A stretch of 37,372 nt of DNA from Nemertoderma westbladi. Taxonomy: Eukaryota > Animalia > Xenacoelomorpha. This document shows positions 7,101-36,693 of the stretch, one piece after another (within the stretch, counting starts at the first letter, position 1; each line of letters opens with the position of its first letter). The notes below the pieces were generated by a model. The model worked only from the letters and a program-made list of their open reading frames with translations. It ran no database searches and was not told where the DNA came from. The stretch lies in assembly GCA_032718475.1 (NCBI GenBank), contig JAUCBJ010005997.1, forward strand, positions 1 through 37,372, written 5' to 3'. Made by a program: the position numbers and the translations under genes.

Positions 7101-10100
7101 TATTTGGGCCACATTATCGCTCTTTACAATACCACAGTATTTGGGGCACATTATCGCTCTTTACAATACCACAGTATTTGGGGCACATTATCGCTCTTTA
7201 CAATACCACAGTATTTGGGGCACATTATCGCTCTTTACAATACCACAGTATTTGGGGCACATTATCGCTCTTTACAATACCACAGTATTTGGGCCACATT
7301 ATCGCTCTTTACAATACCACAGTATTTGGGGCACATTATCGCTCTTTACAATACCACAGTATTTGGGCCACATTATCGCTCTTTACAATACCACAGTATT
7401 TGGGGCACATTATCGCTCTTTACAATACCACAGTATTTGGGCCACATTATCGCTCTATACAATACCACAGTATTTGGGGCACATTATCGCTCTTTACAAT
7501 ACCACAGTATTTGGGGCACATTATCGCTCTTTACAATACCACAGTATTTGGGGCACATTATCGCTCTTTACAATACCACAGTATTTGGGGCACATTATCG
7601 CTCTTTACAATACCACAGTATTTGGGCCACATTATCGCTCTTTACAATACCACAGTATTTGGGGCACATTATCGCTCTTTACAATACCACAGTATTTGGG
7701 GCACATTATCGCTCTATACAATACCACAGTATTTGGGGCACATTATCGCTCTTTACAATACCACAGTATTTGGGCCACATTATCGCTCTTTACAATACCA
7801 CAGTATTTGGGGCACATTATCGCTCTTTACAATACCACAGTATTTGGGGCACATTATCGCTCTATACAATACCACAGTATTTGGGGCACATTATCGCTCT
7901 TTACAATACCACAGTATTTGGGGCACATTATCGCTCTTTACAATACCACAGTATTTGGGGCACATTATCGCTCTTTACAATACCACAGTATTTGGGGCAC
8001 ATTATCGCTCTTTACAATACCACAGTATTTGGGGCACATTATCGCTCTTTACAATACCACAGTATTTGGGGCACATTATCGCTCTTTACAATACCACAGT
8101 ATTTGGGGCACATTATCGCTCTTTACAATACCACAGTATTTGGGGCACATTATCGCTCTTTACAATACCACAGTATTTGGGGCACATTATCGCTCTTTAC
8201 AATACCACAGTATTTGGGCCACATTATCGCTCTTTACAATACCACAGTATTTGGGGCACATTATCGCTCTTTACAATACCACAGTATTTGGGGCACATTA
8301 TCGCTCTTTACAATACCACAGTATTTGGGCCACATTATCGCTCTTTACAATACCACAGTATTTGGGGCACATTATCGCTCTTTACAATACCACAGTATTT
8401 GGGGCACATTATCGCTCTTTACAATACCACAGTATTTGGGGCACATTATCGCTCTTTACAATACCACAGTATTTGGGGCACATTATCGCTCTTTACAATA
8501 CCACAGTATTTGGGCCACATTATCGCTCTATACAATACCACAGTATTTGGGGCACATTATCGCTCTTTACAATACCACAGTATTTGGGCCACATTATCGC
8601 TCTTTACAATACCACAGTATTTGGGGCACATTATCGCTCTTTACAATACCACAGTATTTGGGCCACATTATCGCTCTATACAATACCACAGTATTTGGGG
8701 CACATTATCGCTCTTTACAATACCACAGTATTTGGGGCACATTATCGCTCTTTACAATACCACAGTATTTGGGGCACATTATCGCTCTATACAATACCAC
8801 AGTATTTGGGGCACATTATCGCTCTTTACAATACCACAGTATTTGGGCCACATTATCGCTCTTTACAATACCACAGTATTTGGGGCACATTATCGCTCTT
8901 TACAATACCACAGTATTTGGGGCACATTATCGCTCTATACAATACCACAGTATTCGGGGCATATTATCGCTCTTTACAATACCACAGTATTTGGGCCACA
9001 TTATCGCTCTTTACAATACCACAGTATTTGGGGCACATTATCGCTCTTTACAATACCACAGTATTTGGGGCACATTATCGCTCTATACAATACCACAGTA
9101 TTTGGGCCACATTATCGCTCTTTACAATACCACAGTATTTGGGGCACATTATCGCTCTTTACAATACCACAGTATTTGGGGCACATTATCGCTCTTTACA
9201 ATACCACAGTATTTGGGGCACATTATCGCTCTTTACAATACCACAGTATTTGGGGCACATTATCGCTCTTTACAATACCACAGTATTTGGGGCACATTAT
9301 CGCTCTATACAATACCACAGTATTTGGGGCACATTATCGCTCTTTACAATACCACAGTATTTGGGGCACATTATCGCTCTTTACAATACCACAGTATTTG
9401 GGGCACATTATCGCTCTTTACAATACCACAGTATTTGGGCCACATTATCGCTCTTTACAATACCACAGTATTTGGGCCACATTATCGCTCTTTACAATAC
9501 CACAGTATTTGGGGCACATTATCGCTCTTTACAATACCACAGTATTTGGGGCACATTATCGCTCTTTACAATACCACAGTATTTGGGCACATTATCGCTC
9601 TTTACAATACCACAGTATTTGGGCCACATTATCGCTCTTTACAATACCACAGTATTTGGGGCACATTATCGCTCTTTACAATACCACAGTATTTGGGGCA
9701 CATTATCGCTCTTTACAATACCACAGTATGTTGGGCACATTATCGCTCTTTACAATACCACAGTATTTGGGCCACATTATCGCTCTTTACAATACCACAG
9801 TATTTGGGGCACATTATCGCTCTTTACAATACCACAGTATTTGGGGCACATTATCGCTCTTTACAATACCACAGTATTTGGGGCACATTATCGCTCTTTA
9901 CAATACCACAGTATTTGGGGCACATTATCGCTCTTTACAATACCACAGTATTTGGGGCACATTATCGCTCTTTACAATACCACAGTATTTGGGGCACATT
10001 ATCGCTCTTTACAATACCACAGTATTTGGGGCACATTATCGCTCTTTACAATACCACAGTATTTGGGCCACATTATCGCTCTATACAATACCACAGTATT

Positions 10101-11952
10101 TGGGCCACATTATCGCTCTTTACAATACCACAGTATTTGGGGCACATTATCGCTCTTTACAATACCACAGTATTTGGGGCACATTATCGCTCTTTACAAT
10201 ACCACAGTATTTGGGGCACATTATCGCTCTTTACAATACCACAGTATTTGGGCCACATTATCGCTCTATACAATACCACAGTATTTGGGGCACATTATCG
10301 CTCTTTACAATACCACAGTATTTGGGCCACATTATCGCTCTATACAATACCACAGTATTTGGGGCACATTATCGCTCTTTACAATACCACAGTATTTGGG
10401 CCACATTATCGCTCTATACAATACCACAGTATTCGGGGCACATTATCGCTCTTTACAATACCACAGTATTTGGGGCACATTATCGCTCTATACAATACCA
10501 CAGTATTCGGGGCATATTATCGCTCTTTACAATACCACAGTATTTGGGCCACATTATCGCTCTTTACAATACCACAGTATTTGGGGCACATTATCGCTCT
10601 ATACAATACCACAGTATTCGGGGCATATTATCGCTCTTTACAATACCACAGTATTTGGGCCACATTATCGCTCTTTACAATACCACAGTATTTGGGGCAC
10701 ATTATCGCTCTTTACAATACCACAGTATTTGGGGCACATTATCGCTCTATACAATACCACAGTATTCGGGGCATATTATCGCTCTTTACAATACCACAGT
10801 ATTTGGGCCACATTATCGCTCTTTACAATACCACAGTATTTGGGGCACATTATCGCTCTTTACAATACCACAGTATTTGGGGCACATTATCGCTCTATAC
10901 AATACCACAGTATTTGGGCCACATTATCGCTCTTTACAATACCACAGTATTTGGGGCACATTATCGCTCTTTACAATACCACAGTATTTGGGGCACATTA
11001 TCGCTCTTTACAATACCACAGTATTTGGGGCACTTTATCGCTCTTTACAATACCACAGTATTTGGGGCACATTATCGCTCTATACAATACCACAGTATTT
11101 GGGGCACATTATCGCTCTATACAATACCACAGTATTTGGGGCACATTATCGCTCTTTACAATACCACAGTATTTGGGGCACATTATCGCTCTTTACAATA
11201 CCACAGTATTTGGGGCACTTTATCGCTCTTTACAATACCACAGTATTTGGGGCACATTATCGCTCTATACAATACCACAGTATTTGGGGCACATTATCGC
11301 TCTATACAATACCACAGTATTTGGGGCACATTATCGCTCTTTACAATACCACAGTATTTGGGGCACTTTATCGCTCTTTACAATACCACAGTATTTGGGG
11401 CACATTATCGCTCTATACAATACCACAGTATTTGGGGCACATTATCGCTCTATACAATACCACAGTATTTGGGGCACATTATCGCTCTTTACAATACCAC
11501 AGTATTTGGGGCACTTTATCGCTCTTTACAATACCACAGTATTTGGGCCACATTATCGCTCTTTACAATACCACAGTATTTGGGGCACATTATCGCTCTT
11601 TACAATACCACAGTATTTGGGGCACATTATCGCTCTTTACAATACCACAGTATTTGGGGCACATTATCGCTCTTTACAATACCACAGTATTTGGGCCACA
11701 TTATCGCTCTTTACAATACCACAGTATTTGGGCCACATTATCGCTCTTTACAATACCACAGTATTTGGGGCACATTATCGCTCTTTACAATACCACAGTA
11801 TTTGGGCCACATTATCGCTCTTTACAATACCACAGTATTTGGGGCACATTATCGCTCTTTACAATACCACAGTATTTGGGCCACATTATCGCCTTTTACA
11901 ATACCACAGTCCTAAAAATGGCGGGGCCAGCGAGATTGCACTGATGTGCTAG
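4146..11952 (+). mobile_element. Possible non-autonomous Helitron-like element hosting the 37-bp array
   Basis: A|TCTATAT at 4145-4152, 12 bp before the array; GC-rich tail with imperfect hairpin (11921-11943) and CTAG|T at 11949-11953, about 40 bp after it. Matches Helitron A-TC...CTRR-T termini, but these motifs are short. Confidence 0.4.
4158..11910. repeat. 37-bp tandem satellite array, about 209 copies, consensus CACATTATCGCTCTTTACAATACCACAGTATTTGGG(G/C)
   Basis: Directly visible head-to-tail repeats without spacers; very homogeneous, with a few recurrent point variants and rare 35-36 bp units. Confidence 0.99.
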
Positions 11953-12121
11953 TAAGTGCTGCACCCTTACTACTTTTAATTACCAAACCAGTTGATATAA
12001 TTATTAATACTGTAACAATTAAACAGAATAATTAAATTTAATTATTAATTATTAATTATAAATTACATGTTGTGTCCATGAGGGGCGTGGAGGGGGGATT
12101 TGATACAGCAATGGCCTCGCG

Positions 12122-12532
12122 GATTGATTGGGGTCCAGAGTGCGGTGGAATGGAGGCCATGTTGCCGATGATTGGGGCCCATATGGTGCGGTGGAATGGA
12201 GGCCATGTTGCAGATGATTGGGGTCCATGGTGCGGTGGAATGGAGGCCATGTTGCCGATGATTGGGGTCCATGGTGCGGTGGAATGGAGGCCATGTTGCA
12301 GATGATTGGGGTCCACGGTGCGGAGGAATGGAGGCCATGTTGCAGATGATTGGGGCCCATCATGGTGCGGTGGAATAAAGGCCATGTTGCCGATGACTTT
12401 GGTCCATGGTGCGGTGGAATGGAGGCCATGTTGCAGATGATTGGGGTCCATGGTGCGGTGGAATGGAAGCCATGTTGCAGATGATTGGGGCCCATATGGT
12501 GCGGTGGAATGGAGGCCATGTTGCCAATGATT
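12122..12532. repeat. 44-bp (44-47) G-rich minisatellite, about 9 copies, GATGATTGGGGTCCATGGTGCGGTGGAATGGAGGCCATGTTGCA
   Basis: Unit starts at 12167, 12213, 12257, 12301, 12345, 12392, 12436, 12480 and 12526; degenerate copy upstream from about 12070. Confidence 0.95.
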
Positions 12533-12632
12533 TAGGTTGTTGGTTACCCATTATACTTTAAGCAGGGACACTGCAGTCTCAGGGCCGGCATGAACAACTG
12601 ACTCGCCGGTCTACCTAGTGCAACAGTTAGCG

Positions 12633-12900
12633 ATCCAGGTAGGGGGAGGGGGGGGGGGGGGGGGGACTGGACGCAATAAATATTAATCCCTCTCCAGGGG
12701 AAATTTGACGCAAACAACAGCTGATTACTCTCAAAAATAAAACTGTAACCTGTTCTATTGTGCTTAGTTTATTGTTTTGGTTAAAAGAGCGTGCCACTGT
12801 AACCTGCTCCTTTCCCTAGATTGTGAATTTAATATTGAGGTGGGATATTAATTCGCCAAGGCGGGATTTGCGTCCAATTTCCCCCCCTGTCTCCCTCGAT
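12633..12900. mobile_element. Degenerate MITE-like element with imperfect terminal inverted repeats
   Basis: G-run plus ACTGGACGCAA at left versus TTGCGTCCAATTTCCCCCCC at right; internal segment 12740-12817 is shared with 27043-27070 (reverse) and 29170-29240. Confidence 0.5.
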
Positions 12901-13468
12901 CAAATTGTAATATTTTCGTCTTGTTTTCCTTATACATTCAAATTTTGAAGTCGTTGGCATGATATTTATGAAATACTAACTATACAAAATGCTATAATGT
13001 TATAAATAAACTATTATTTATTGTTATATATACATAAAGTTTACTCCGATTATAAGTTTGTTGATTCTTAAAGAAGAATATAATCATAGATATGTGAATA
13101 TAATTTATGCCGGGACCCGGATTGGAATTGTCTCCTATTCCAGTTTCCAGTATAAATCGTTACTTCTACACATTAGAACATACTAAATGAATTTGTTGGC
13201 CATCGAAATCAAAAAATTATTATTAATCTCTTCTCAATTAATTTAACATTAAAAAAAATTTCACAAATTTCACAAATGAATGTGGCCCCATCCATTTTAT
13301 ATAGTTCGTGGTACACCGGAAAAAAACACGGCTGGTTAAAACAAGAGGGCAACAACTAACAGCATAAAATAAAGTCGTATTATACGTATGCCATATAATA
13401 AATATAGTGTTAATAATTCACGTCGTATATAAACCCCCCCCCCCCTCCCCAGATTATTGTACAATAAG

Positions 13469-14983
13469 TTAAATGCGGGTTATGAATTCAACTTTGTACC
13501 GGGATGGTCTTCTTGTAATTCCACCCTCCACCTCGTCTTTTAGAGGGAGTCTGCCATCACTAGGCGGACGAATATGGAATGTGTGTAGCAGGTAACCGAA
13601 TATAATTCTCATTTCAACCTTGGCGAAAGATTCTCCGAGGCAAATTCTCGGACCAATTCCAAAAGGTATGAAACACTCCGGCTTCACAAATCTATTGTTA
13701 ACATCAAGGAAGTGTTCAGGTCGAAACTCTCTTGGATGTTTCCAGATTTTAGGGTCGTTACAGATCGCCCAAATGTTAGCTATGATGATGGAGTCGCGCG
13801 GAAGATCGTAAGAAAGGAAACCCGTGTCGGATTCCAGTCTGTGTGGAGCCGTCAGAGGTGAAACGCAACCGTATCGCAAGACTTCGTGAAGAGTTGCCTC
13901 TAAATACGGAATCTCCTTAAAGATATCGTTGTTTGGTAATCCACCTCCTTTATGATTATCCAATAACATTTGACATTTTTTCTGAATAGTTTTATTCTCG
14001 GCCATAAGTATAACGAACCAATAAACTGCATCGGTTGCTGTTTCAGATCCAGCCATAAACAAATCTCGAATGACCATTAATATATTATCATCTTTCAAAT
14101 ATATTAAATCATCGTGGTTTTTATTCTTCATCTTGTGGGCGTGTTTCATAAAGGCGTCAATCACATCGGTATCATCGTCGTCGTAGTTGACTGCAGCTCG
14201 ATGGGAATCCATTTCCTTTCGAAGAAGTTTATTCATTTTGCTTTGGTTTTTGAAGATCTTGTATCCTAATGTCCCAGGGATCCAACATTCCAACTGTCTG
14301 GGTAGTATCGAGGGCTTCGAAGGACCTGCTGTTCTCATAACAAATTCAATGCATTCCAAAAGTTGGCAGAAATATGGGTCGTCAATATCGAATCGTTTAC
14401 CAAATATCAGACTACAAATAACATTAGAGATGGTTAAGCAGATGGCATCATAAGGATCAAAGTCTTCTCGCTCGTGACTGAGGATTTCCTTGCAAAGTAA
14501 GTTTGTTTCGTAGACGACCAGGCCTTCTAGTCGGCGAGTTCCTAATCCAAATTTCCGAAGAAATATCATGACCAGTCGTTTAACAACAGTCCAAGACTTA
14601 CCATCGTTAAACAGCAAGCCAGTCTTATTTGTCCGGGTGTCTATAATATTTCTTAAAATTCTTCCTGAAAATATTATTGAATTGTCAACAAAAGCTTCTT
14701 TTATAGTGGCGAATTGATTTAACGCGAATATAGAGCGTCTTCCAATATTTACAGTTATGATATCGCTTCCCAACTGTTCTGACCAGTTAGCGAGCGTCTG
14801 AGGGAAGGTGTACGGGTTTAATAGGGAGAGAACGTTACCCAGTAAAGGTAATCCTCTAGGAGCTGGAGGTAACTTCAGCGTGTGTTGTGATAAATATCTG
14901 TAGACTCCTAAAAATATTACCAAGAATATCACTGCAGACTGTATGTCTAGCGCGCTGAGGTATTCGTATTGAAGTAACAACAT
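13469..14983 (-). CDS. Cytochrome P450, CYP2 clan, microsomal type (about 504 aa)
   Basis: N-terminal TM anchor, Pro-rich hinge PPAPRGLP, I-helix FMAGSETAT, K-helix EVLR, PEHF (PERF), heme motif FGIGPRICLG. First in-frame ATG at 14983 (track start 15049 is TTG). No introns. Confidence 0.95.
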   Translation of the reverse strand: MLLLQYEYLSALDIQSAVIFLVIFLGVYRYLSQHTLKLPPAPRGLPLLGNVLSLLNPYTFPQTLANWSEQLGSDIITVNIGRRSIFALNQFATIKEAFVDNSIIFSGRILRNIIDTRTNKTGLLFNDGKSWTVVKRLVMIFLRKFGLGTRRLEGLVVYETNLLCKEILSHEREDFDPYDAICLTISNVICSLIFGKRFDIDDPYFCQLLECIEFVMRTAGPSKPSILPRQLECWIPGTLGYKIFKNQSKMNKLLRKEMDSHRAAVNYDDDDTDVIDAFMKHAHKMKNKNHDDLIYLKDDNILMVIRDLFMAGSETATDAVYWFVILMAENKTIQKKCQMLLDNHKGGGLPNNDIFKEIPYLEATLHEVLRYGCVSPLTAPHRLESDTGFLSYDLPRDSIIIANIWAICNDPKIWKHPREFRPEHFLDVNNRFVKPECFIPFGIGPRICLGESFAKVEMRIIFGYLLHTFHIRPPSDGRLPLKDEVEGGITRRPSRYKVEFITRI

Positions 14984-15376
14984 TACTTTAATATTAAATG
15001 AAATTCGGAAGAGAAAGAAAACAAAATTTACAACATTACCACAACACAAAGATTAGTTAATATGATATCAATCGTTTCAACACCATCTATCATGATTGTC
15101 ACGTAATTTGGCACATGAGTTGCTCTTTAACATGTTGGCTATTGTAATCCCTATATGGGAATGAATATAATACCCCTATCAAAATATATAACATACACGG
15201 CACCTACACGTACTGTACCATAATAGTGTGCATGAAAAGTACATTAAAAAAATAGGTAAATAAGATCGTTTCCCCTTTCTAAGACTCGACTGAAATCTAA
15301 TCAATTTATGTTCTCATTTAACAACTTGCGAATGAATGAATGTAAATTTATTTTTAGATAATTAATTTATATAAGT

Positions 15377-15560
15377 CCAACCTTAGCGTAGAGGTTAAAT
15401 TCGTTTCGTTGAATTATCTGGTTGTCGTGGGTTCGATCCCCGCATAACGGCAGGGTAGTTTTCAATTCGGCACTAAAGGTTTAAAGGGAATATAGCCAGG
15501 GCACATCTCAGTTGCTTTGCATCCTTAACTGTTAGGCAAATGAGAATCAGCTTCCTGTAT
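15377..15560 (+). mobile_element. tRNA-derived SINE, family copy 1
   Basis: A-box-like TAGCGTAGAGG (15384-15394), B-box GGTTCGATCCC (15430-15440); body CAGGGTAGTTTTCAATTCGGCACTAAAGGTTTAAAGGGA...AGCCAGGG is homologous to 26161-26210. 3' end uncertain. Confidence 0.7.
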
Positions 15561-17826: not shown

Positions 17827-20115
17827 TTACCATGAATTGAGGTCATCTTCAACCCTCTTCTTTATTTCTGCTCTTGTGCTATCTTTATCCTTACTCTTAT
17901 ATTGTACATATTGTATTTCTTCTGCTGCAGAATGCGCCAAAGGTCCATAGCAACCAAACGATGCATTAAAATCTAACATTTGTTCTCGTTGAGTTGTGTC
18001 TAGCTTGTCTAACCTCAGCCTGAGTTCGTGCAACTTTTGCTCATCTCGTTCATCATCAAATAGTTTTGGCGGGGTTTTAGGCGATTTCGGCGATTTTATT
18101 CCTCTTTCACACCTTGTTGGGAATCCTATCGATGCTAGGGAAGTACTACGGAATGGCATATCATATACCGATGACGTACCTATACTCAGTATCCTATTGT
18201 ATGCTTGGTGTCTCTTTCGCAGATCGTACAGGGCTCTTTCTGTTCGTTCGTTAACAGTGGTGTTGGCATCGGACATCTTCCCTGTTTTTTCCAGAATATT
18301 TTTTTGAATTTCAAGCCGTTCTATATCAGTATTAGCTTTGAGGAGTTTTTCTTTGAACTTTTTTATGTAAGATTTGTATAACAATTTGTTGCTCTTAAGA
18401 TCCTGTGATGCCTTATTTAATTTCTTATTAAAGTTATCCATTTGAATTTGAAGTTCTCCATTCCTTCTTGTAAGATTTATTTTTTCGTTAATCCATATTC
18501 CCTTTTCATTCTCTCTTGCTAGCTGTAGATTTTCTACCGTTTCTGTTAGATCTGCTTTGAGTATAGCGTTATCGTTTGTCAAATCAAGAACATTTTTCTG
18601 TAGTTGATTGTTCTGTAAAGTTAATTCATGTATGCGAAGGTCTTCTTGAGGTGGTTTGTGTAACTCCATTATTTCCTTTTCTTGAAGAACAAGTTTTAAT
18701 TCACAACTTTCTCTCTGTAATCTCTCTAATTCAGCAATAATTTTGCTGTTTACATTAATGGTTTCATTTTTACCATTAATTTCAACTTCAAGCTGATTGA
18801 CTTTTTGTTGATATTCCTCTACTTTCGAATTCGATGCTTCCAATTGTTTTTCTATTATTGCTACCTTCTCTTTATGTTCTTGAATTTCTTTGTTAAATCC
18901 AGATTTGATATCATCTATTTGTTGTGACATAGATTTGCATTTAATGCTTAATTCTAGTTTTTCACTTACTAACTCTTCATGTTTAATCCATTCCGAGTCC
19001 CTCACGGTTTGTTCTCTAACAACTAATGCAGTTTCCTTCTCTTGTATATTACCTTTCTGTTTCTCTACAATGGCTTCCAGAATGTTGATCTTTTCTTGGG
19101 CCTCAATGATACGGTTGTTCCATTGTTCTGTTTCTTTGGACGAGGAACTTTTTAATTTGATCATATCTGATTGGTGTTTTAGTTCTGCAGTTTCAAGTAG
19201 ACCCATGACTTCACAAACCTGGTTACGCAAGAGAGAATTACTCTTATCATATTCTATTGTTTTGTTATTGAGACTATTATGAGTTTCTCTTACTGCATCT
19301 AATTCATTATGTAAACTCCTAACCTGTTTCTTTAGTTGTTCGTTTTCCTTAAGAATCTGATCTGCGCGATTTTTACTTTCTGAAATCTCATCGGTTTGAG
19401 TTCTATTACAGTGATCGAATTCCAAATGTAAAGTATCTTTTTGCTCTTGTACATGCCCCAAATCATCTAGTAAAGATTTCACCTTATTATGTAGCTGCTT
19501 ATTCTCTTTCTCAAGGTGACTTATTTTCCCACTTTGACCTTCTAATGTTTCTTTCAACTTTTTTATCGCTTCCGCGTTATTTTCGCATAGCTGTGCTTTC
19601 TCGTTCTCCACTCTGCTTACAATAGCTTCTATTGCCAACTCGTGTTGCTTACTTTCATTAGTAGCTTTTGTCTCTAGCACAGCGAATTGTTCTATTAATT
19701 CTGTATACTTTGCTCTGTAACCCTCCATATCTTTAGCCATTTCGAGTAGCCTCCTATTGTAGTTAGTCTCAGCCTCCTCTTCAACTTGTGATTTCATGTT
19801 GTTTATAACTTCTTCCTTTAATGCATTCCTATTCAATTTCTCACATTCTCGTCTTCCATCTTCCACCTGGTCCTGGAGTTTTCTAATTATTTTATTATAT
19901 CTTTCATCTATTCTCGGAATTAATGATTCTTTGCTTTTAAGTTCTTCCACTAGTTTGTCGTATTCGTGGGTTAATGTATCATGTTGATCCTTTATTGTCT
20001 GATAGTTTGTCTTGTACACTTCAGCCTTTATCCTTTCTTCATTGATAAGTTTTTTATAGTTTTCACCTTCTTCAAGTAATTTAGCAAATTGTTTGTGTAT
20101 AAGTTCATTTGCCAT
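17827..20115 (-). CDS. CEP83: Centrosomal protein of 83 kDa-like (CEP83/CCDC41), coiled-coil distal-appendage protein
   Basis: 762-aa ATG-started, almost entirely coiled-coil ORF. N-terminal LINEERIKAEVYKTNYQTIK and C-terminal LRKRHQAYNRIL / LRLRLDKLDTTQREQM resemble the conserved terminal motifs of CEP83 as I recall them. Confidence 0.75.
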   Translation of the reverse strand: MANELIHKQFAKLLEEGENYKKLINEERIKAEVYKTNYQTIKDQHDTLTHEYDKLVEELKSKESLIPRIDERYNKIIRKLQDQVEDGRRECEKLNRNALKEEVINNMKSQVEEEAETNYNRRLLEMAKDMEGYRAKYTELIEQFAVLETKATNESKQHELAIEAIVSRVENEKAQLCENNAEAIKKLKETLEGQSGKISHLEKENKQLHNKVKSLLDDLGHVQEQKDTLHLEFDHCNRTQTDEISESKNRADQILKENEQLKKQVRSLHNELDAVRETHNSLNNKTIEYDKSNSLLRNQVCEVMGLLETAELKHQSDMIKLKSSSSKETEQWNNRIIEAQEKINILEAIVEKQKGNIQEKETALVVREQTVRDSEWIKHEELVSEKLELSIKCKSMSQQIDDIKSGFNKEIQEHKEKVAIIEKQLEASNSKVEEYQQKVNQLEVEINGKNETINVNSKIIAELERLQRESCELKLVLQEKEIMELHKPPQEDLRIHELTLQNNQLQKNVLDLTNDNAILKADLTETVENLQLARENEKGIWINEKINLTRRNGELQIQMDNFNKKLNKASQDLKSNKLLYKSYIKKFKEKLLKANTDIERLEIQKNILEKTGKMSDANTTVNERTERALYDLRKRHQAYNRILSIGTSSVYDMPFRSTSLASIGFPTRCERGIKSPKSPKTPPKLFDDERDEQKLHELRLRLDKLDTTQREQMLDFNASFGCYGPLAHSAAEEIQYVQYKSKDKDSTRAEIKKRVEDDLNSW

Positions 20116-21700
20116 ATTGAAACTTTGTTACAATATAGTTCAGGGAGCCTTTTCGCCAGCAGTAACTCCGTAATATATACAAATTAATATTGTTTCAGTT
20201 TATTATTACCATGAAATATCCGCATCTACGTAAACAGGAACTAATTTGATATTGTCAAAGAGTTTTGTGCAGAAATTTAATGTATAAATAACACAAATAG
20301 AGATAAAATAATCCCTAACTCTGTTCGGATAATTTATTGTATATACTTATTATTTAGAGAGAATGGAATACAGAATCTAATTATATTACAATATTACTGA
20401 TATACAAATAAATACGTACAGACTTATAATATGCCGTATATTAATCTTTCTTTTTTGGAAACGAATTATGTTAAATTAATTTCCATTAATAAGTGGATAT
20501 ATAAACTAATATTACAGATATAATAAAATATATAATAATAAATTTATAAAAAATTGTTGGCAATAATTGTGAACGGATGAAATACAAAAATACTTATGGT
20601 AATTTTACATATATCTGCAAGTAAATTTCATGTAATCGGACTGAAATAGTATATCTAAAATTCATATTATACTATCGTATTTGCATAACGATCAATGTTT
20701 TTATTATCTCTGTTTGACTATCAACTGCACAGATTGGAACTTTGCTATACGGCTGTTGTTACAATGAAGGTGGCAAGCCTGTGTGCGATTGGGTCTGTGT
20801 GCACAACCAGTCCTTCCTATATAGTGTATTCCTGATACAAAGATTTACTATTGTTACATTGAAATCCATAAAGTTGATTACTAATCTGCAGTAACTAATC
20901 CATGGTTTATTGATCTGTTTCGGAGCTAGTGGCCGAAGTAGTTTATATTTGAGTTTTTTTTTAATTTTACTAAAAGCCACATTGTTGGGATTTATCGAAC
21001 TATTGGAAGAGTGATTCCTCTGAAATTGTTGTTGTTCCATTACTATTTAGTTTCTTTTTGTCCATCGTTTATTGCGTTCCAACTAATGTTTGTTTTATCG
21101 TGCTCTGTTCAGTCTTCCTGACATGTTAGTATTATATCATATCATGTTTGTGCATACCTAAAGGCCCGTTCATATCCAACGGAATGGTAAACCGCGCGGT
21201 GTACCTCAGGGCCAGCGGTACCCCTTCTGAGTGTGAACTACCTATTTGTGAACAATCTATTTTCCCTCAAAAAAATCGTAACCTTGAACTAACTAATTTT
21301 TCCGAGTGTTCATACTAGAACTTGGGCATTAAAATGTCCATTTGTTCCGTACTAAAACTGTATGCTAAAGTTTGACTTTGTCGGCGCTTGCGCTTAGTCT
21401 TGTCCAAGTCCCTACAACATGTAAAATTAAAGAACCATATTATTTTTTTAGAAAAAGCAATATGTGTATTCAATAAACTGTCGAGGTATATGTTGATAGT
21501 CAGTGCGCCATTATATGCAATGGAAAGTAGAAATATTCTTCAACGACATATTATATAACAACATATTGCACCAATATATAAATCCATGCCTCGATTGTGG
21601 TATAACTTGTTCGACATCGCGGCTCAGGCCACCACAAGTCGTACAAACAATCTTTATCATAGAATATAAGTAATTAACTACTACAGGTGCACATATATAA

Positions 21701-21738: not shown

Positions 21739-22711
21739 CTCTCATGAGCCTTTCTTCCTCCCTATTGTATTCAATAATAATATTTTGCAGCTATAAAGTA
21801 ATTATGCGGATCTACATTCTACTGTTGTCATAAATATTCATTCTGTGTAATTAAAGTTTTATGAGTTGGGAGCTGACTTTGAAAAGTTGCTGTGGTAGTT
21901 CAGTTATTGACAGCCGACGGGTGGGTTTCTTTTTGAACCCCCCCCCCCCCCCCCCCCCCCCCTACACACTCTTTGTTTATTATCGTTAGCAATAAATAAT
22001 GGTGTACTGCTATTCAATGTCAGCGAACTACTTCCAACTAAATAGGAGTAGTTTGCCAAATCGGAAGGGGAAGGTATCCTAACATGTTATTATTTATAAG
22101 AATATGTTTGTTACCAGTCATATATGCGCCTTATGCTGCTATATTTACAGTTGACTATTCTGTTATTACTTTTCAACTTATATTTCTGTATATCGGCATT
22201 CTGTGTCACATAAGTAAGTAACTGAGGGATAGTAGAACAACATAAAAGAACAAAATATAATCAACATAAAAGCTAAAACCCAACTTAAAACGTCCATGCT
22301 TAAGACGTAAATTAATTATTAATAATAAAACAATAAACATTGTTTATGACTTAAGCAAGGCTACCTACCACCTTAGAGCTTGAAGATGTTGAGGTTTAGT
22401 TTTATTTCGAAGTTAGAGCTTTATGGTCGATATTATTATTACCTAAGCAAGCAGTGGCAATGCGCTAAGTTGCCTTGTAGTTTTTATATTATATCCAAAA
22501 ATATGCTGCCAATATTCTTAGATTGTTATCATTTTAAAGATTGACAATTGGATAAAAATTCCATAAAATTTATGTACAGGAGTAAACAGTTGTGCTTTAC
22601 CAAGGCGTGATTTCTATTTGGTTTCCGTACTTCGTCAATTCATAATAATGTAATATAACGGCTTTGTTCAGAAATGGAAACTTCAGGAAGCAGGTCACTG
22701 GGGGTTGAACC

Positions 22712-22757
22712 AGCGCTATACGCATGTTGTGGCCTATCAGGCCTCATCAGTAGCGCT
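22712..22757 (-). ncRNA. Degenerate type I hammerhead ribozyme (core GAAA mutated to ACAA)
   Basis: Minus strand AGCGCTA-CTGATGA-GGCCT GAT AGGCC-ACAA-C ATGC GTA-TAGCGCT: perfect stems I and II, intact CUGAUGA and GUA site, broken GAAA. Confidence 0.65.
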
Positions 22758-22981
22758 AACCAGTTCATCCACATACTCTCCCACCTAATACACCTTTATT
22801 GAAAATGCAGTCTTGCATTATATCCTATCTCTAACAGCTGACCTAACGGCCTCAAGTATGTTAAAGTGGAACAGGAGGGAAGTACAAATAAATAAATATT
22901 CAATATTCATAATAAATATAAATATTCATATATATACTGCCTGTTCAATAGAAGCGGATTAGGTGGGACTGCGAGTGTCAG

Positions 22982-23075
22982 GGGCAAGTGGCTGAACTGG
23001 TTAGTGCTACTGATGAGGCCTGATAGGCTGAAACGTACGTATAGCGCTGGTTCAATCCCCAGTGACGTGCTTTTT
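22982..23075 (+). promoter_or_regulatory. Pol III type-2 internal promoter unit (A-box, B-box, T5 terminator) enclosing the hammerhead
   Basis: A-box TGGCTGAACTGG 22989-23000, B-box GGTTCAATCCC 23049-23059, TTTTT 23071-23075; the A- and B-box motifs are also present in the inverted copy. Confidence 0.65.
23003..23048 (+). ncRNA. Minimal type I hammerhead ribozyme
   Basis: Stem I AGTGCTA(23003-09)/TAGCGCT(23042-48); CTGATGA 23010-16; stem II GGCCT-GAT-AGGCT 23017-29; GAAA 23030-33; short palindromic stem III ACGTACGT 23033-40; GUA cleavage triplet 23039-41. Confidence 0.85.
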
Positions 23076-23532
23076 CATTTTTTCCAATTCTGAACAAAAC
23101 CGTTATATTACATCATTATTTACAGTTGCATTAACAGCTCAACTCCAATTTATTCAGTTCATACTACATGACGAATGGCATGAACTAAAATAAAAAAAAA
23201 AAATAAAATAAAAAAAATAAAACATTCAATCTACGTAATCTTCTCAGTGGCTTCCCAGTGGTTAGTTACTGTACAATGCATATTCCATTACCTGTTTCTT
23301 GGAATTTTTCTTTAGTGAGGAAACCTACCGATCAGCTGACTTCCATCAGCTTATTTTTAGTTTTTTGCATATTTTGGTACTTGCATACCTACCAGTAAGA
23401 GTTTTAATTAAACGTGCTTGAATAGTGTAATATTTCCGTCCGATTAATGTTTCATTAATTCTTAGTTAATTGTTGTTGTATGTCAGATGAACTGGATTAC
23501 TAGAAACAGTATAAAATTATTGAACGCGTACA

Positions 23533-25545
23533 ATGTCAGTTAATGAATTTAATTGCTTGTGGAAGATGGTAATATGTAGTGCATTACTCTACATTGGCGA
23601 ACTCTCTATAATATGTTACGCCGGGAAGTTTGACGAGGCTGCCCGCAAAGAGGCAGTATATGCTTCGTACCACCAGTACTGTATCATTGGAGCAGGTCCT
23701 TCTGGAATCCAGATGGCCTATTTCCTCCAGAAAGCCAACCGCGATTACATTGTCTACGAACAGAATTCTATTAGTGGTTCTTTCTTTGTCAAATACCCAA
23801 GACATCGAACTCTTATAAGCATCAACAAGAGATTCACAGGACAGACTAATAAAGAGTTTAATTTACGTCATGATTGGAACTCTTTAATTAGTGATGATGA
23901 AAATCTATTATTTACGAAATATTCAAAGAAATTTTTTCCTGATGCAGATGATATGGTCACATATCTTAATGATTTTTCGCAAAGGTTTAACCTCAACATC
24001 CAGTACAACACAACAGTCCAGAACATATCGGCGTACTTCCTCCACAAAGACTTTAATATGAAGTTCGACAGCAATATAAAGTACAGGAAGGAACACCCCG
24101 ACTACTTCTCCAATGACACCAATTTGTCTTATAGGTATATTTTTAGTGACCAAAATGATGTCATATACACATGCGGTTTGTTGCTTGTGGCAACAGGGTG
24201 GTCTCGACCGAATATTCCTACGGAAATGAAAGATGAAGATGATTTACTTATGTCATATGAAAACATGAACTTGGATACTGATATATACGAAGGAAAGACT
24301 GTACTAATACTTGGTAAAGGGAATAGCGCATTCGAGACTGCTGATCATATAATGGGTGTTGCTGGTGTCATTCATATGATCAGCAGCTCTAGAGTTGCAC
24401 TCGCCTGGCAAACTCACTATGTTGGTGACCTTAGAGCAGTAAACAATGGGTTTCTAGATACCTACCAATTGAAATCGTTAAGTGGAATAATGGAGGGAGA
24501 TTTACGTAATACTGTATTTACAAAGTGTTTATATCATAATAGAATCTGTATTGAGAACGAGGTACAAAACAGAACAAATCGTAACCGTTTCTCTGGCTAT
24601 GATACCAGTGCAGTTCGAGACGGCTATGATATTGTTATTCGTTGTCTCGGTTTTACTTTTGATTTTGACATGTTCGAGGAACGAGCCAAACCTAACCCAG
24701 CAGCTACAAGCGGTGGTCTAACTAAATTTCCTGCAATCGATGCGAGATATATATCGATTCCTGGTATGTATATACTAGGTCCATTGGCTCATTCATTGGA
24801 TTACAAGAAATCTGCTGGTGGCTTTATCCATGGCTTCCGTTACACCACACGTGCATTGTCTCGTCTCTTGGAGTTTGAGTTCCACTCTGTAGTCTGGCCT
24901 TCAATCACTTCTAACTTAAATCACCTGGAGAATCATATTGTAAAAAGATTAAATGAAATGAGTGGTCCATATCAGATGTTTGGTGTTCTGGGTGAAGTTA
25001 TACTCATTGATACCATCAACAGTGAGTTTACACACTTCGAAGAGTTTCCTGTAAAGTTAATGGATCAGTTTGAGGAAACCACAGGCCACTTATTGAGGAA
25101 CCGATCTTTAATTGTTGTTACATTGGAATATGGGGCAAATTTCTCCCATCCCGGTGCGGATACTATGGATATGGGAAGAGCCCGAGGGGCCCACGCACAC
25201 ATTGCCGATAATGCAAACTTTTTGCATCCTGTATTTTATTATTACAAAAATCTGCCCACTTCTCTTGATATGGAGACCATTAATGAAAAGGCAATACTAC
25301 CAATCCCAGACGATGTTATGATGCTTGCTGAAGAATTCCTTACCGAATGGAATACACCGAACACTCATATTCTTCAATTGCGGAGATGGTTGGAAAAGAT
25401 TACTAGTTCGAACCGGAGACATTATTCTAGTACATCTTGTTTCGAAATGTCGTTACATTCTATTAAACCTCCATCTGGGTGTAAATCTTACCTAAACGAT
25501 GAAGGATTTTGGTTTGACGTTATGGCCGTAAATTTCGATATGTAG
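23533..25545 (+). CDS. FOXRED2: FOXRED2/ERFAD-like flavoprotein, paralogue B
   Basis: 670-aa ATG-started intact ORF with signal-like N-terminus and the same FAD/NADPH motifs; colinear with paralogue A at an offset of 21970 bp at both ends of the homology. Confidence 0.9.
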   Translation: MSVNEFNCLWKMVICSALLYIGELSIICYAGKFDEAARKEAVYASYHQYCIIGAGPSGIQMAYFLQKANRDYIVYEQNSISGSFFVKYPRHRTLISINKRFTGQTNKEFNLRHDWNSLISDDENLLFTKYSKKFFPDADDMVTYLNDFSQRFNLNIQYNTTVQNISAYFLHKDFNMKFDSNIKYRKEHPDYFSNDTNLSYRYIFSDQNDVIYTCGLLLVATGWSRPNIPTEMKDEDDLLMSYENMNLDTDIYEGKTVLILGKGNSAFETADHIMGVAGVIHMISSSRVALAWQTHYVGDLRAVNNGFLDTYQLKSLSGIMEGDLRNTVFTKCLYHNRICIENEVQNRTNRNRFSGYDTSAVRDGYDIVIRCLGFTFDFDMFEERAKPNPAATSGGLTKFPAIDARYISIPGMYILGPLAHSLDYKKSAGGFIHGFRYTTRALSRLLEFEFHSVVWPSITSNLNHLENHIVKRLNEMSGPYQMFGVLGEVILIDTINSEFTHFEEFPVKLMDQFEETTGHLLRNRSLIVVTLEYGANFSHPGADTMDMGRARGAHAHIADNANFLHPVFYYYKNLPTSLDMETINEKAILPIPDDVMMLAEEFLTEWNTPNTHILQLRRWLEKITSSNRRHYSSTSCFEMSLHSIKPPSGCKSYLNDEGFWFDVMAVNFDM

Positions 25546-32354: not shown

Positions 32355-34409
32355 TTAAGATTTATGAACAGAATCATTGTGTCTCTTAAGTTCATGTCCA
32401 TTAGAAATTTGTTTATGGCAGATAGAACAATCATATTTAGAGTTTCCCATTCCTTTATGAAAGTTGTTAACATGAGTGTTTAGAATGGATTGCTGGCTGA
32501 ATTCTTTGTTACAATAACCGCACTTATGTTTGATTAGTTTATGGATAGAGTCGACATGTTTATTTAGATTACTTTTGGTACCAAATGATTTTCCACAATC
32601 AAAACAGCTGTACTTGATGTCTTTATGGGCGTAGTTGACATGGACGTTTAGATTGCCCTGCTGGCTGAATTCTTTGTTACAATTACCGCACTTATGTTTG
32701 ATATCTTTATGTGCGTAGTTGACATGCCTGTTAAGACTGACCTGCTGTCTGAATTCTTTGTTACAATAACCGCACTTATGTTTGATTAGTTTATGGATAG
32801 AGTCGACATGTTTTTTTAGATCACGTTTGGTACCAAATGATTTTCCACAATCAAAACAGTTATATTTGATATCTTTATGGGCGTAGTTGACATGAGTGTT
32901 TAGACTGCCTTGCTGGGTGAATTCTTTGTTACAATAACCGCACTTATGTTTGATTAGTTTATGGATAGAGTCGACATGTTTATTTAGATGACTTTTGGTA
33001 CCAAATGATTTTCCACAATCAAAACAGTTATATTTGATATCTTTATGGGCGTAGTTGACATGGGCGTTTAGATAGTCTTGCCGGCTGAATTCTTTGTTAC
33101 AATAACCGCACTTATGTTTGATTAGTTTATGGATAGAGTCGACATGTTTTTTTAGATCACGTTTGGTACCAAATGATTTTCCACAATCAAAACAGTTATA
33201 TTTGATATCTTTATGGGCGTAGTTGACATGAGTGTTTAGACTGCCTTGCTGGGTGAATTCTTTGTTACAATAACCGCACTTATGTTTGATTAGTTTATGG
33301 ATAGAGTCGACATGTTTATTTAGATGACTTTTGGTACCAAATGATTTTCCACAATCAAAACAGTTATATTTGATATCTTTATGGGCGTAGTTGACATGGG
33401 CGTTTAGATGGCCCTGCCGGCTGAATTCTTTATTACAATAACCGCACTTATGTTTGATATCTTTATGGGCGTAGTTGACATGGGTGTTTAGAAAGTCTTG
33501 CCGGCTGAATTCTTTGTTACAATAACCGCACTTATGTTTGATTAGTTTATGGATAGAGTCGACATGTTTTTTTAGATCACCTTTGGTACCAAATGATTTT
33601 CCACAATCAAAACAGCTGTACTTGATATCTTTATGGGCGTAGTTGACATGGGCGTTTAGATAGTCTTGCCGGCTGAATTCTTTGTTACAATAACCGCACT
33701 TATGTTTGATTAGTTTATGGATAGAATCGACATGTATCTTTACAGAACTCTTCTTTTTAAACAGTTTCTCACAAAAATCGCATTTATACTTATTCTTTAC
33801 GTCTTTATGAAAGGATTCTATATGTCTCTCTAAATTTTCTCTGCCATTAAATAATTCATTGGAATGAAAACAGGAACTGGTATCTGGAGAAAATTGGAAC
33901 TCCCCAACAGCTTTACTAGAACTACCGGAATCTGTTGTTGCACAACTGATTGTCAGTTTAGTAGCGCTGCAACGATCAACGTTGTCACGAGAGGTACCGG
34001 TACCAGCAGTATTACACTGTTTTCTAACAGTTCGAGTTTCTGCAAATGGATCAATAACTATACAACCTTCAGATTTTACACTAATAAATTGCAAACCACA
34101 AGCTGAATGTTGAATATGAATATTTGCATCTTCAGTTTCAATAGGCGTACTATACGAACAGTTTGGGCTGTCGTTTTCCTGTTTTTCGACAACAAAATAA
34201 TCTCCAGGAATATCTTCGTCATCTTGTACAGGGACATAATCTACTCCACCAAACAAATTGTTTTCATCTTCGATAGAAGATCCGTAAACGCAGTTCTCCT
34301 GTTTAACTTCAAGAGGATAGGGAGCACAGTCTGTTGGTTCTTTCTTTATAATTATCCCGGCACTGGAGGATTTTTTCTTCAATACATTAATTTGTTGATT
34401 CATTATCAA
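32355..34409 (-). CDS. C2H2 zinc-finger protein with 17 intact fingers plus one degenerate finger
   Basis: CX2CX12HX4H repeats with 28-aa (84-bp) period from about 33790 to 32360; acidic N-terminus with IKKE, VKQE and VKSE (psi-KxE) motifs; no SET, KRAB, BTB or ZAD domain recognised. Confidence 0.92.
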   Translation of the reverse strand: MIMNQQINVLKKKSSSAGIIIKKEPTDCAPYPLEVKQENCVYGSSIEDENNLFGGVDYVPVQDDEDIPGDYFVVEKQENDSPNCSYSTPIETEDANIHIQHSACGLQFISVKSEGCIVIDPFAETRTVRKQCNTAGTGTSRDNVDRCSATKLTISCATTDSGSSSKAVGEFQFSPDTSSCFHSNELFNGRENLERHIESFHKDVKNKYKCDFCEKLFKKKSSVKIHVDSIHKLIKHKCGYCNKEFSRQDYLNAHVNYAHKDIKYSCFDCGKSFGTKGDLKKHVDSIHKLIKHKCGYCNKEFSRQDFLNTHVNYAHKDIKHKCGYCNKEFSRQGHLNAHVNYAHKDIKYNCFDCGKSFGTKSHLNKHVDSIHKLIKHKCGYCNKEFTQQGSLNTHVNYAHKDIKYNCFDCGKSFGTKRDLKKHVDSIHKLIKHKCGYCNKEFSRQDYLNAHVNYAHKDIKYNCFDCGKSFGTKSHLNKHVDSIHKLIKHKCGYCNKEFTQQGSLNTHVNYAHKDIKYNCFDCGKSFGTKRDLKKHVDSIHKLIKHKCGYCNKEFRQQVSLNRHVNYAHKDIKHKCGNCNKEFSQQGNLNVHVNYAHKDIKYSCFDCGKSFGTKSNLNKHVDSIHKLIKHKCGYCNKEFSQQSILNTHVNNFHKGMGNSKYDCSICHKQISNGHELKRHNDSVHKS

Positions 34410-34940
34410 ATCTTAATAATTATATAGGCCTATCAATAATTATAATTATACAGGTGATTACTTACCAAGCCTATTCGCTATTATAAATAGATTTCAGCGT
34501 GCAGAAGTAGGCAGTTAGGCATACATTCCGTAACGTGTACAATTGATACAATTAACAATTGTACAAAATGTAGGCCTACTGTACATGTACTGTAGATGCA
34601 ATATCTTTCTCTAACAGTAAATGAGCATGTAACAATTACATCCAGACATCCTAAAGGGAACCAAAACAAAAAACGAGTACCGGTATGATTTTTTTTTGTG
34701 ATATAAGTGTTTACTTTTAGATTTACACTGCTTAAGCGCCTAAACTGTAAAAGTACCGCTAAAATGTAATAAACATTGTATTTGGTAAATTAGGCCTACT
34801 ACATTCCCGTACACTGTATGCCACATGACTTCGGAGCCGACGATCTTCCTATTCCCCAATCAGCCAATCCATGCAGCCATGGGCTGGACGTTCCCTAACC
34901 CGGGATCAGGAACCGATCCCAGCACTGCGAGCATCGAGTC

Positions 34941-36693
34941 TAAGTCCAAAGTCCAACTAGCCCTTGGTACTTGGACACAAGTCCCTAAAAGGTGCCACCC
35001 TGCTCCATAACGCGGGAAATTTAAATGATTGAAAGACATGTAATTTATACTGCAAAGGCCAAAGGCAGAAAGGGTGGCAGATCAGATCTGCCACCTATAT
35101 TTTGGCGGTAAATTCAAATCTGTTTTAACATTGAATATATGAATAGAGTAAGACTAATGTAATACGGCCTAATGTAATAATGGGCCCGCATACCCAGTAG
35201 TGACCGTGTTTGTATATGTGATGGCAGTTCAGTACAAAATGAACATCATGCAATTTTAATGTGCCCAAAAACCGCCTTTATAAGAAACAAGTATAGTATT
35301 GTAGGCTGCATTTGTATGTCCGAATTTATGGTTCAGTTTTCAAATAATATAATAGTAAGTGCAATTACAGAATGTTTAGAAGTATTAGATAACTAGAATT
35401 CATGTAAATTTGTATTAAGTTGGACTGTATCTTTGTCGCAATGGTATATTTACAAGTTATTATTGTAAATTTATTTAATTGATTTAATTTGGAAGATATT
35501 GTCAATAAACATATATATATATATAATTCATTGAATCAGAATAAATTATTTCTTATCGGTTTAACTCACTCATCCGTTGTTGTTGTTGTTTTATCTATTC
35601 TGGGGCTTCGAGCAGCACGTGAACAATTAAGCTGACTGGTTAACTACTCTGGGACTTCGAGCAGCACGTGAACAACTAAGCTAACTGGTTAACAAGTCTG
35701 GGACTTCGAGCAAAATTTAAAATTGAGGAGGGGGGCGGGTCGGGTGATTTGGCTTAACTTCTATCCCAGTAAAGTATAGAACATTATAATCCTAACAATT
35801 AATACACTTATACCAAGTATGTTAATAGTGGATTTCAAGTGGATAGATGATACAAAGACGCAGTGAATTGATATATTTTTGGCGTTTGATTCAAATTACA
35901 GAATTACAATATTTCCATCACAAACTGTACACAGTGTGCTACATAATGTACGTGGGTACGTACTAAAAGGTCAAGGAGCTAGAGCAGTAGACTTCATACA
36001 GTAAACTTCTTACTGTAGTAGTACTTACAGTACTTCTACTGTAATAACAGTTCAGTTTAGTTGTTCACGTGCTGCTCGAAGTCCTAGACTAGTTAACCAG
36101 CCAGTTTAGTTGTTCACGAGCTGCTCGAAGTCCCAGACTGGGAAACCAGCCAGTTTAGTTGTTCACGTGCTGCTCGAAGTCCGAGACTAGGAAACCAGCC
36201 AGTTTAGTTGTTCACGAGCTGCTCGAAGTCCCAGGCTATTTAACCAGTCAGCTTAGTTGTTCACGAGCTGCTCGAAGTCCCAGGCTATTTAACCAGTCAG
36301 CTTAATTGTTCACGTGCTGCTCGAAGTTCCAGACTAGTTAACCAGTCAGGTTAGTTGTTCACGTGCTGCTCGAAGCCCTAGACTAGTTAACCAGTCAGCT
36401 TAGTTGTTTACATGCTGCTCGAAGCCCCAGAATAGATAAAACAACAACAATAACGGATGAGTGAGTTAAACCGATAAGAAATAATTTATTCTGATTCAAT
36501 TAATTACATTTAGTCTTGCTCTCTTCATGTAGGGTATTCAATGTTAAAACTGATTTGAATTTACCGCCAAAATATAGGTGGCAGATCTGATCTGCCACCC
36601 TTTCTAGTACAAATTACATGTCTTTCAAGCATTTGAATTTCCCGCGCTATGGAGCAGGGTGGCACCTTTTAGGGACTTGTGTACTTGGACTTA
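34941..36693. mobile_element. Foldback-type element with long inverted arms containing tandem repeats
   Basis: 34975-35163 plus 35524-35712 is the reverse complement of the outer part of 36053-36682; non-repeated centre 35713-36052; each arm has the palindrome GGTGGCAGATC-N-GATCTGCCACC. Confidence 0.88.
36053..36430. repeat. 49-bp tandem repeat, about 8 copies (about 2.3 inverted copies at 35599-35712)
   Basis: GTT(C/T)AC recurs at 36063, 36112, 36161, 36210, 36259, 36308, 36357 and 36406; unit CAGTTTAGTTGTTCACGTGCTGCTCGAAGTCCTAGACTAGTTAACCAGC. Confidence 0.95.

Follow-up and report, generated by a model that had tools for sequence, protein, structure and literature searches.

The stretch of Nemertoderma westbladi DNA analysed here (contig JAUCBJ010005997.1; 37,372 nucleotides, referred to below as the window) carries long genes at 1506-3551, 13469-15052, 17827-20127, 23524-25545 and 32355-34412. 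All are single uninterrupted open reading frames, which is unusual for an animal. They comprise two FOXRED2 paralogues, a gene for a CEP83-like protein and, as we presume from the sequence alone, a cytochrome P450 and a C2H2 zinc-finger array; the FOXRED2 products are at most 49% identical to their relatives and the CEP83-like protein 23%. The window also contains a 37-bp satellite (4161-11910; 209.5 copies, 97% matches) that is open in three forward frames, foldback- or MITE-like inverted arrays of one 49-bp unit with common outer flanks (35591-35712, forward, and 36052-36439, reverse), and two tRNA-derived SINE-like pieces with A and B boxes and no hammerhead (3640-3775, reverse, and 15380-15460, forward).

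A predicted type I hammerhead ribozyme placed between the A box and the B box of a tRNA remnant, with a T-run behind it, lies at 22982-23075 (Table 1). An earlier note on this DNA had located these motifs, and we found all of them exactly at the positions that it gave. The extent proposed there holds for the motifs themselves; the element to which they belong reaches far past both sides. The 3' strand of the D-arm remnant serves at the same time as the 5' arm of hammerhead stem I.

Table 1. Features of the hammerhead/tRNA-box locus, in window positions
Feature	Coordinates	Strand	Evidence
Copy B: inverted, head-to-head with copy A, no tail	22642..22902	-	alignment to copy A, repeat depth
AT-rich filler between the 5' ends of A and B	22903..22935	.	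single-copy depth
Copy A: forward, 5'-truncated, ends at the fixed 3' end of the family	22936..23154	+	loose ends at 22936 and 23154
tRNA D-arm remnant (positions 8-25) with A box	22989..23007	+	tRNA pattern matches; family variants
A box	22989-23000	+	pattern match
Type I hammerhead	23003..23048	+	pattern, family variants, predicted fold
Stem I	23003-09/23042-48	+	pattern match
CUGAUGA core	23010-16	+	pattern match
Stem II	23017-29	+	pattern match
Stretch collinear with tRNA-Asn(GUU) anticodon arm and variable region	23017..23036	+	alignment, family variants
GAAA core	23030-33	+	pattern match
Palindromic helix III	23033-40	+	pattern match
GUA site	predicted cut between 23041 and 23042	+	pattern match
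B box (T-loop remnant)	23049..23059	+	pattern match; family variants
T5 run, private to copy A	23071..23075	+	family depth
T6 run, likely family Pol III terminator	23078..23083	+	family depth
35-bp PLE-type tail, on copy A only	23120..23154	+	A/B comparison, one locus

This set of motifs is not a product of chance. The full hammerhead pattern occurs once in the whole window, both strands considered, and the only pair of A and B boxes spaced 35-75 nt apart is the one that flanks it. When the flanking 80 bases were shuffled, 0 of 200,000 trials reproduced the A box on the 5' side of the hammerhead together with the B box on its 3' side; the analytic estimate, for which consensus patterns of the boxes were taken from general knowledge, is 1e-7 to 1e-6, with the two boxes not fully independent in it, as the A box is partly complementary to the B box. 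The comparison with Rfam hammerhead models that had been proposed earlier gave no hammerhead or tRNA match in the whole window at E<=1, and in a 521-bp region only Hammerhead_3, a type III model (17.9 bits, E 0.5; gathering threshold 48.5). Nor does the locus hold a functional tRNA gene: ARAGORN called 0 tRNA genes in the window, Rfam none, and the predicted probability of the D-stem is 0. A match to MIR7533 (E 1.5e-07; 43.9 bits against a gathering threshold of 230) was set aside as a mere reflection of the inverted repeat described below.

The ribozyme had been labelled a minimal hammerhead. In the min-HHR of Penelope-like elements (PLEs), as outlined in PMC4209133, helix II measures 7-8 bp and is preceded by an extra unpaired base, and helix III is absent. 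Here, in contrast, helix II has 5 bp, there is no extra base, and a short palindromic helix III is present; the same source assigns this dimer-type layout to the canonical type I hammerheads of animals. The label is therefore not appropriate in the min-HHR sense.

The family to which the motifs belong was reconstructed from contigs of four public DNA runs, X1-X4, representing three samples and three studies (X2 and X3 derive from one sample). Summed contig depth over the core reached 72,000 (X1), 279,000 (X2) and 372,000 (X3), versus 8-150 on the unique flanks; the resulting ratios of about 1,800-14,500 are not true copy numbers, and the repeat is likely to be present in thousands of copies. 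The feature is thus the core of an abundant repeat, not a lone 90-nt gene. The copy that carries it (copy A; 43% GC) shows 11 listed differences from the majority letters across its 219 bp. A second copy (copy B), absent from the earlier note, lies 80-340 bp upstream of the feature then reported, and 146 of the 170 columns of its alignment with copy A at 22936-23119 are alike. It has decayed, having lost the GAAA core and one A-box letter, and on its upstream side includes about 90 bp that belong to the family and that copy A lacks. The filler between the two copies contains a 19-bp local duplication (tandem period 19 at 22891-22930).

Depth at the level of a repeat covers 22820-22902 and 22936-23154, and in other loci cross-strand joints connect 22819-22 to 22934-36, from which it follows that the additional 5' part of copy B is upstream family sequence. 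At least 30 more shared letters were found beyond 22902. On the other side, 42, 50, 45 and 6 contigs (X1-X4, respectively) run beyond 23154 into unlike AT-rich flanks; this position is the fixed 3' end of the family, and it bears no A-tail. Relative to the presumed Pol III start, family sequence extends about 170 bp further upstream, and downstream it reaches 71 bp past the T6 run. Contigs joining 23154 to 22902 numbered 3 in X2, 2 in X3 (the same sample) and 0 in X1 and X4; a back-joint from 23154 to 22964 occurred in 1 contig each of X1-X3, and an overlap of the loose-end consensus sequences closes the unit as well. On the basis of these few short contigs, whose joints were called at 80% likeness and are unreliable at that level, the unit may close at about 344 bp; at least 312 bp of it was seen directly. 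Two family forms differing by a 13-nt indel exist at 22961-22988, upstream of the A box, and copies A and B carry different forms despite the minority letters that they have in common downstream.

The order A box, hammerhead, B box and T-run proved to be a trait of the family contigs and not an accident of this copy. In the unphased variant tables of X2 and X3 (one sample; variants of at least 6%), no hammerhead core position varies, and the conserved elements CUGANGA, GAAA and an NUH site are all present. Two letters of copy A are private: 23005 is C in 99% of the family, which makes stem I fully Watson-Crick, and 23056, an unconstrained position that is the sole variant site of the B box, is C instead of T in 99%; X1 and X4 agree on both. 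True family polymorphisms within 22989-23059 number only four. These are 22996 A/G, a purine position and the sole A-box variant; 23023 A/T in loop II (T in 49-57% in X2/X3, 36% in X1 and 9% in X4); 23029 C/T, the partner of G10.1 (C in 60-71%); and 23037 A/G in helix III (G in 5-13%), where G preserves the self-duplex through G-U pairs (-8.8 versus -9.8 kcal/mol). All four keep the consensus or the pairing, as one-sided changes with no two-sided compensation in these unphased tables. The 5' TGGC of the A box and the CAA of the B box show no variant at the same threshold. The pattern of the four polymorphisms speaks for selection on the ribozyme and the boxes; the low variation may alternatively reflect just one recent master copy. 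A family devoid of the catalytic core or of conserved boxes, which the earlier note had named as fatal to its view, is not what we observed, since both are kept. Outside the core, minor alleles at 22975 (A, 9-14%) and 23068 (T, 11-16%) have similar frequencies and could pair in an outer helix, a possible (unphased) compensation.

The A box, the B box and the T6 run together make up a complete type 2 Pol III unit. The terminator is a different one from that originally suspected: the T5 run is a private mutation, as 23074 is C in 94-95% of the depth in X2 and X3 and 93% in X1. The T6 run is located 19 nt behind the B box, where the terminator of a tRNA gene would sit; no substitution or indel of at least 6% is listed for it, at a depth that is only 15-20% of that of the core, and copy B lacks it. 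A Pol III transcript would end at T6, far short of unit length, so the internal promoter cannot alone yield the template for transposition, unless master arrays lack this run. The lack of T4 runs in 200 non-core bases, considered as a sign of Pol III read-through, was discarded (P 0.13, not significant).

The earlier note had proposed a self-cleaving Pol III RNA of roughly 90 nt, or a SINE family. A gene or SINE of about 90-100 nt that copies itself from its own short transcript would account for the complete type 2 unit and for the peak of depth over 22992-23063 (three to five times that of the 3' flank), but the same peak is expected from 5' truncation, optional tails and poor seeding beside private changes. 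A 100-nt Pol III RNA could not template the 170 bp upstream, the 71 bp downstream, the fixed end and the tail. In addition, although internal A and B boxes are present, as in tRNA-derived SINEs, the tRNA part is not at the 5' end of the element, and the fixed, complex 3' end has neither an A-rich or simple-repeat tail nor a TSD of 5 bp or more. We therefore consider this explanation very improbable, and the PLE-type inverted insertion with its tail likewise contradicts it.

The arrangement of the two copies bears on the mode of mobilization. Copies A and B share six family-minority letters (23061, 23068, 23102, 23104, 23115 and 23119), which indicates that they stem from one template lineage and probably from one event. 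Copy B stops at the position matching 23119, and copy A continues for a further 35 bp. PLE insertions, in the accounts given in PMC8557442 and PMC11167929, are marked by a 5'-truncated copy that adjoins the 5' end in inverted orientation and by a tail of 30-40 bp on one side only; both are seen here, the tail at this one locus. For the anole element PAc, the tail is described as the distance between two internal starts of reverse transcription, and insertion in vitro did not need hammerhead cleavage (PMC11167929). At least five same-strand joints with the inverted-plus-truncated layout occur at other loci (22722/23078, 22767/22974, 22767/23042, 22772/23105 and 22899/23103), each of them, among the joints listed, as one contig per run and unreliable at 80% likeness; joint 22767/23042 (one contig each in X2 and X4) restarts exactly at the predicted cut. 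The 5' truncation, the location of the hammerhead shortly upstream of the 3' ends and the AT-rich flanks are further similarities to PLE insertions as far as these are characterized in the sources cited. No word of 5 or more letters is common to 22600-22641 and 23155-23200, as would be expected of a TSD.

The element is likely of the retrozyme type and dependent on PLEs. Unlike a PLE proper, it has an internal tRNA-type promoter and a hammerhead other than the min-HHR, and no ORF with RT or GIY-YIG endonuclease was detected in the window (ORFs of at least 80 aa; crude motif scan). Alternatively, the copies might be truncated pseudo-LTR remnants of an autonomous PLE whose 3' end had captured a tRNA, with no separate non-autonomous unit. 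Truncated PLEs are reported typically to leave inverted pairs of hammerheads at distances of 100-700 bp, along with dispersed single motifs (PMC4209133); the majority of the visible copies here end at 23154 next to unlike flanks, and the family could be traced only 30 letters beyond 22902 on its 5' side. Nevertheless, the joints and the loose-end overlap close the unit at about 344 bp and the hammerhead has the canonical retrozyme layout, and we regard such remnants as rather improbable.

Transposition at the DNA level was also considered, in the form of a MITE or of the solo LTR of a non-autonomous LTR element resembling Helenus, with a tRNA-derived LTR and an incidental hammerhead. Helenus offers a precedent for tRNA-derived A and B boxes, which reside in its LTRs, in a mobile non-coding repeat that is not a SINE (PMC10886601), and a short inverted similarity connects 22896-22902 with the 3' end. 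In comparison with Helenus, as portrayed in that article, the present element lacks LTR ends, a PBS, a PPT and a 5-bp TSD, and possesses a hammerhead. Moreover, its 5' ends vary, a TSD was not found, and both the tail on a single side and the head-to-head pairs are in keeping with PLE insertion; we consider this origin barely credible. The specific candidate, a TG...CA LTR or MITE, was dropped, as shared family sequence continues past 22902 and the family ends at 23154, ahead of the CA.

Folding was predicted for RNAs of different lengths. With the majority letters, stems I and II, the helices I and II of a type I hammerhead, form at pair probabilities of 0.84-0.96. With the letters of copy A, stem I falls to 0.003-0.05 (versus 0.93 with the majority), a T-arm-like hairpin being favoured instead; this copy is thus predicted to misfold, and the family majority to fold. 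The 23037G variant lowers stem I to 0.25 in the monomer model. Helix III has a predicted probability of 0.01 in the monomer, and its perfect 8-nt palindrome, with a 2-nt loop and a predicted self-duplex of -9.8 kcal/mol, could supply this helix in a dimer. With a helix III of this kind, cleavage would depend on the pairing of two RNA molecules into a double hammerhead. The 100-nt stretch of Pol III size is no more stable than its shuffles (z -0.48), whereas 22936-23099 (164 nt) is matched by only 1 of 300 (z -2.97); for the whole 219 nt, 14 of 300 shuffles are as good (z -1.88). The predicted pairing connects the region ahead of the presumed start with that surrounding and following the T-run. 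Taken together, these results make the long RNA look like the selected structure.

In the predicted majority fold, GAAC of the A box pairs with GUUC of the B box, and RNA pairing alone could therefore preserve both. The same PLE-dependent retrozyme might thus carry vestigial boxes, kept by the mutual pairing that extends stem I and unused by Pol III. The 22996 A>G variant, which maintains the pair as G-U, agrees with this, as do the excess structure of the long RNA and the block that T6 imposes on a unit-length Pol III product. Against it stand the invariance of the unpaired TGGC and CAA (at the 6% threshold), which one recent master copy might also produce, and the position of T6 at the place of a tRNA terminator, and we judge vestigial boxes to be unlikely, albeit worth serious attention.

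The unit had been described as tRNA-like, with the ribozyme in the place of the anticodon arm and variable loop; the pattern matches and an alignment to tRNA-Asn bear this out, in that the flanks are tRNA-derived and in register. A pattern of A box, D-arm and B box found ARAGORN-called tRNAs in 117 of 119 viral-contig loci, among the matches listed. The stretch between the boxes, with either form of loop II, fitted tRNA-Asn(GUU) best among 87 distinct standard-length tRNAs of seven anticodon classes in the matches listed, these being from viral contigs, and the idea of tRNA-Asn having been formed from a resemblance after sight of the sequence. One tRNA-Asn can be aligned collinearly over 50 of 59 letters, of which the search pattern itself dictated 24. 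Stem II falls on the anticodon stem and GAAA on tRNA positions 41-44, and T at 23023, present in about half of the family, creates the GUU anticodon within loop II (CUGUUA). The 11 distinct viral-contig copies of tRNA-Asn(GUU) among the matches listed, mostly from giant-virus bins, resemble the element in the D-arm and in GG...CCGAAA around the anticodon loop, and 5 of the 11 have its T-stem, GCUGG/CCAGU. The element differs from them in 16 inserted letters, a broken D-stem and acceptor stem, and an 8-nt T-loop.

Several controls were applied to this resemblance. Among 2,000 shuffles, 178 attained the best score against a single tRNA, as did 96 among 2,000 random hammerheads. The best class mean, a statistic chosen after that first, weaker control and based on at most 8 distinct middles per class, was attained by 24 and 6 among 1,500 random hammerheads, and by 2 among 1,500 when the outer stem II was kept. 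When 122 natural stem II pieces taken from viral contigs were used instead, the GUU form was equalled by 0-1 of them and the GAU form by 3-5. Against an origin from tRNA stand the similarity of loop II to the consensus loop of the Rfam type III model, the 14 of 122 natural loops that start with UG, and the fact that natural hammerheads with a GAAA tetraloop also score best on Asn.

Given that stem II and GAAA are in register with the anticodon arm, the hammerhead may have arisen from the tRNA. Under such a scenario, the anticodon stem would have become stem II (G30-C40 as G10.1-C11.1), the anticodon loop would have become loop II and tRNA positions 41-44 the GAAA, with CUGAUGA, the palindrome of helix III and the 3' strand of stem I coming from short insertions. 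This de novo origin is tentative, and we would sooner doubt than accept it. The alternative is that an existing hammerhead was inserted, or template-switched, into a tRNA. Equally speculative is the combined reading, namely that the hammerhead was born de novo in a tRNA-Asn(GUU) gene carried by a PLE-dependent repeat, that boxes and terminator were kept, and that the RNA of about 100 nt now trans-activates the cleavage of other copies. A derivation of CUGAUGA from the old anticodon loop was rejected, the two being 4 nt out of register.

The closest known relatives appear to be the animal non-LTR retrozymes, which are characterized in PMC7229834 (Cervera and de la Pena 2020) as hammerhead repeats of 150-450 bp, expressed as circles and ligated by RtcB in vitro, and which were argued to be non-autonomous PLE derivatives in the preprint of Li, Clavereau and Pollet (2026; bioRxiv 10.64898/2026.07.22.740005). 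The present element matches these accounts in its non-coding unit within that size range, a GC content under 50%, a type I hammerhead of canonical layout whose palindromic helix III is short, a copy number in the thousands with many monomers, and the proposed dependence on PLEs. In contrast to the retrozymes so described, it has A and B boxes straddling the ribozyme, with T6 following; it is known from DNA, and the evidence for tandem units consists of a few contig joints. In the searchable text of these two sources the term "polymerase III" is absent, as are "pol iii" in that of PMC7229834 and "tRNA" in that of the preprint.

Sm-alpha and Sj-alpha of Schistosoma, summarized in PMC6765202 and PMC2770079 as "a promoter followed by a hammerhead" and related to tRNA-Gln(UUG), likewise unite, at high copy number, a Pol III promoter of tRNA kinship and a hammerhead of type I, and in them, too, cleavage parts the promoter from the unit-length RNA. 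Judged by these descriptions, the element from Nemertoderma is set apart by a hammerhead that lies between the boxes and shares bases with the D-arm and T-arm, by its likeness to tRNA-Asn and by the terminator that follows. On account of T6, its internal promoter cannot simply drive the element in the manner proposed for Sm-alpha. We class it neither as a SINE nor as an autonomous PLE nor, by its layout, as Sm-alpha.

The earlier note did not recognize this nested architecture from any described family, and no account of a hammerhead between the boxes was found in the open-access full texts searched; nor did one of a hammerhead derived from the body of a tRNA come up there, and the SINEBase paper holds nothing relevant to the element. 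In viral contigs, the search for the family or its architecture returned 1 match, attributable to chance. None of the 123 matches listed for the core plus B box (4 viral and 119 metagenome loci) places a type I hammerhead between A and B boxes, and none of the 33 matches for the D-arm plus core (29 prokaryotic-genome and 4 viral loci) has both stems or a B box. As these collections hold little animal DNA, they are silent on the spread of the element among animals. We conclude that what is new here is the placement of a hammerhead inside rather than behind a tRNA-type promoter, in a retrozyme-type element.

The explanation that we favour, with somewhat more confidence than doubt, is that the locus represents a degenerate copy of a non-coding repeat that is abundant and likely constitutes a retrozyme of about 340 bp mobilized by the enzyme of a PLE; its predicted type I hammerhead is enclosed by the A and B boxes of a tRNA remnant most like tRNA-Asn. 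A long RNA spanning the unit would be generated by read-through rather than by the internal promoter alone, and is predicted to fold as a rod with the hammerhead at its tip. A PLE protein might then nick AT-rich DNA, with reverse transcription starting about 78 and 113 nt behind the cut site; by analogy with PAc, two such starts could produce the observed 3' ends at 23119 and 23154 together with the head-to-head pair. In parallel, Pol III may synthesize an RNA of about 100 nt, from about 22982 to the T6 run, and this short RNA, supplied by thousands of dispersed copies, could act as the trans partner for cutting. Cutting would separate the A-box half from the B-box half, so that an intact promoter could be inherited only through RNA that is uncut, multimeric, or circular after re-ligation.

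The texts consulted on animal retrozymes, PMC7229834 and the 2026 preprint, identify no promoter for them, and the cutting of solitary type I hammerheads, which require a dimer partner, calls for an explanation. A ribozyme that shares bases with a tRNA-type promoter links Pol III transcription, promoter-splitting cleavage and activation through trans-dimers, each of which can be tested on a 100-nt RNA.

The repeated origin of hammerheads has long been debated. If the tRNA-Asn ancestry of stem II and GAAA is true, the element would be a natural case of a path from tRNA to ribozyme that can be rebuilt stepwise in vitro, and if the de novo reading holds, a natural ribozyme with a traceable non-catalytic ancestor only a handful of mutations away. 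Should this ancestry fail, it would still represent a new way for a PLE parasite to co-opt a tRNA.

Two minor observations were made in the collections searched. Metagenome contigs L043 (36-125), L066 and L097 contain a type III hammerhead (Rfam E 0.012), and a similar one is present in L012 (575-680). In the first three, loop I resembles a tRNA D-loop and a T-arm-like hairpin comes after the hammerhead, with no ARAGORN call; these four contigs possibly represent an unrelated tRNA-like hammerhead in microbes. Finally, L007 (569-657) and L108 carry a tRNA called Ile(GAU) with a long variable arm, the anticodon loop of which is identical to the CUGAUGA motif.
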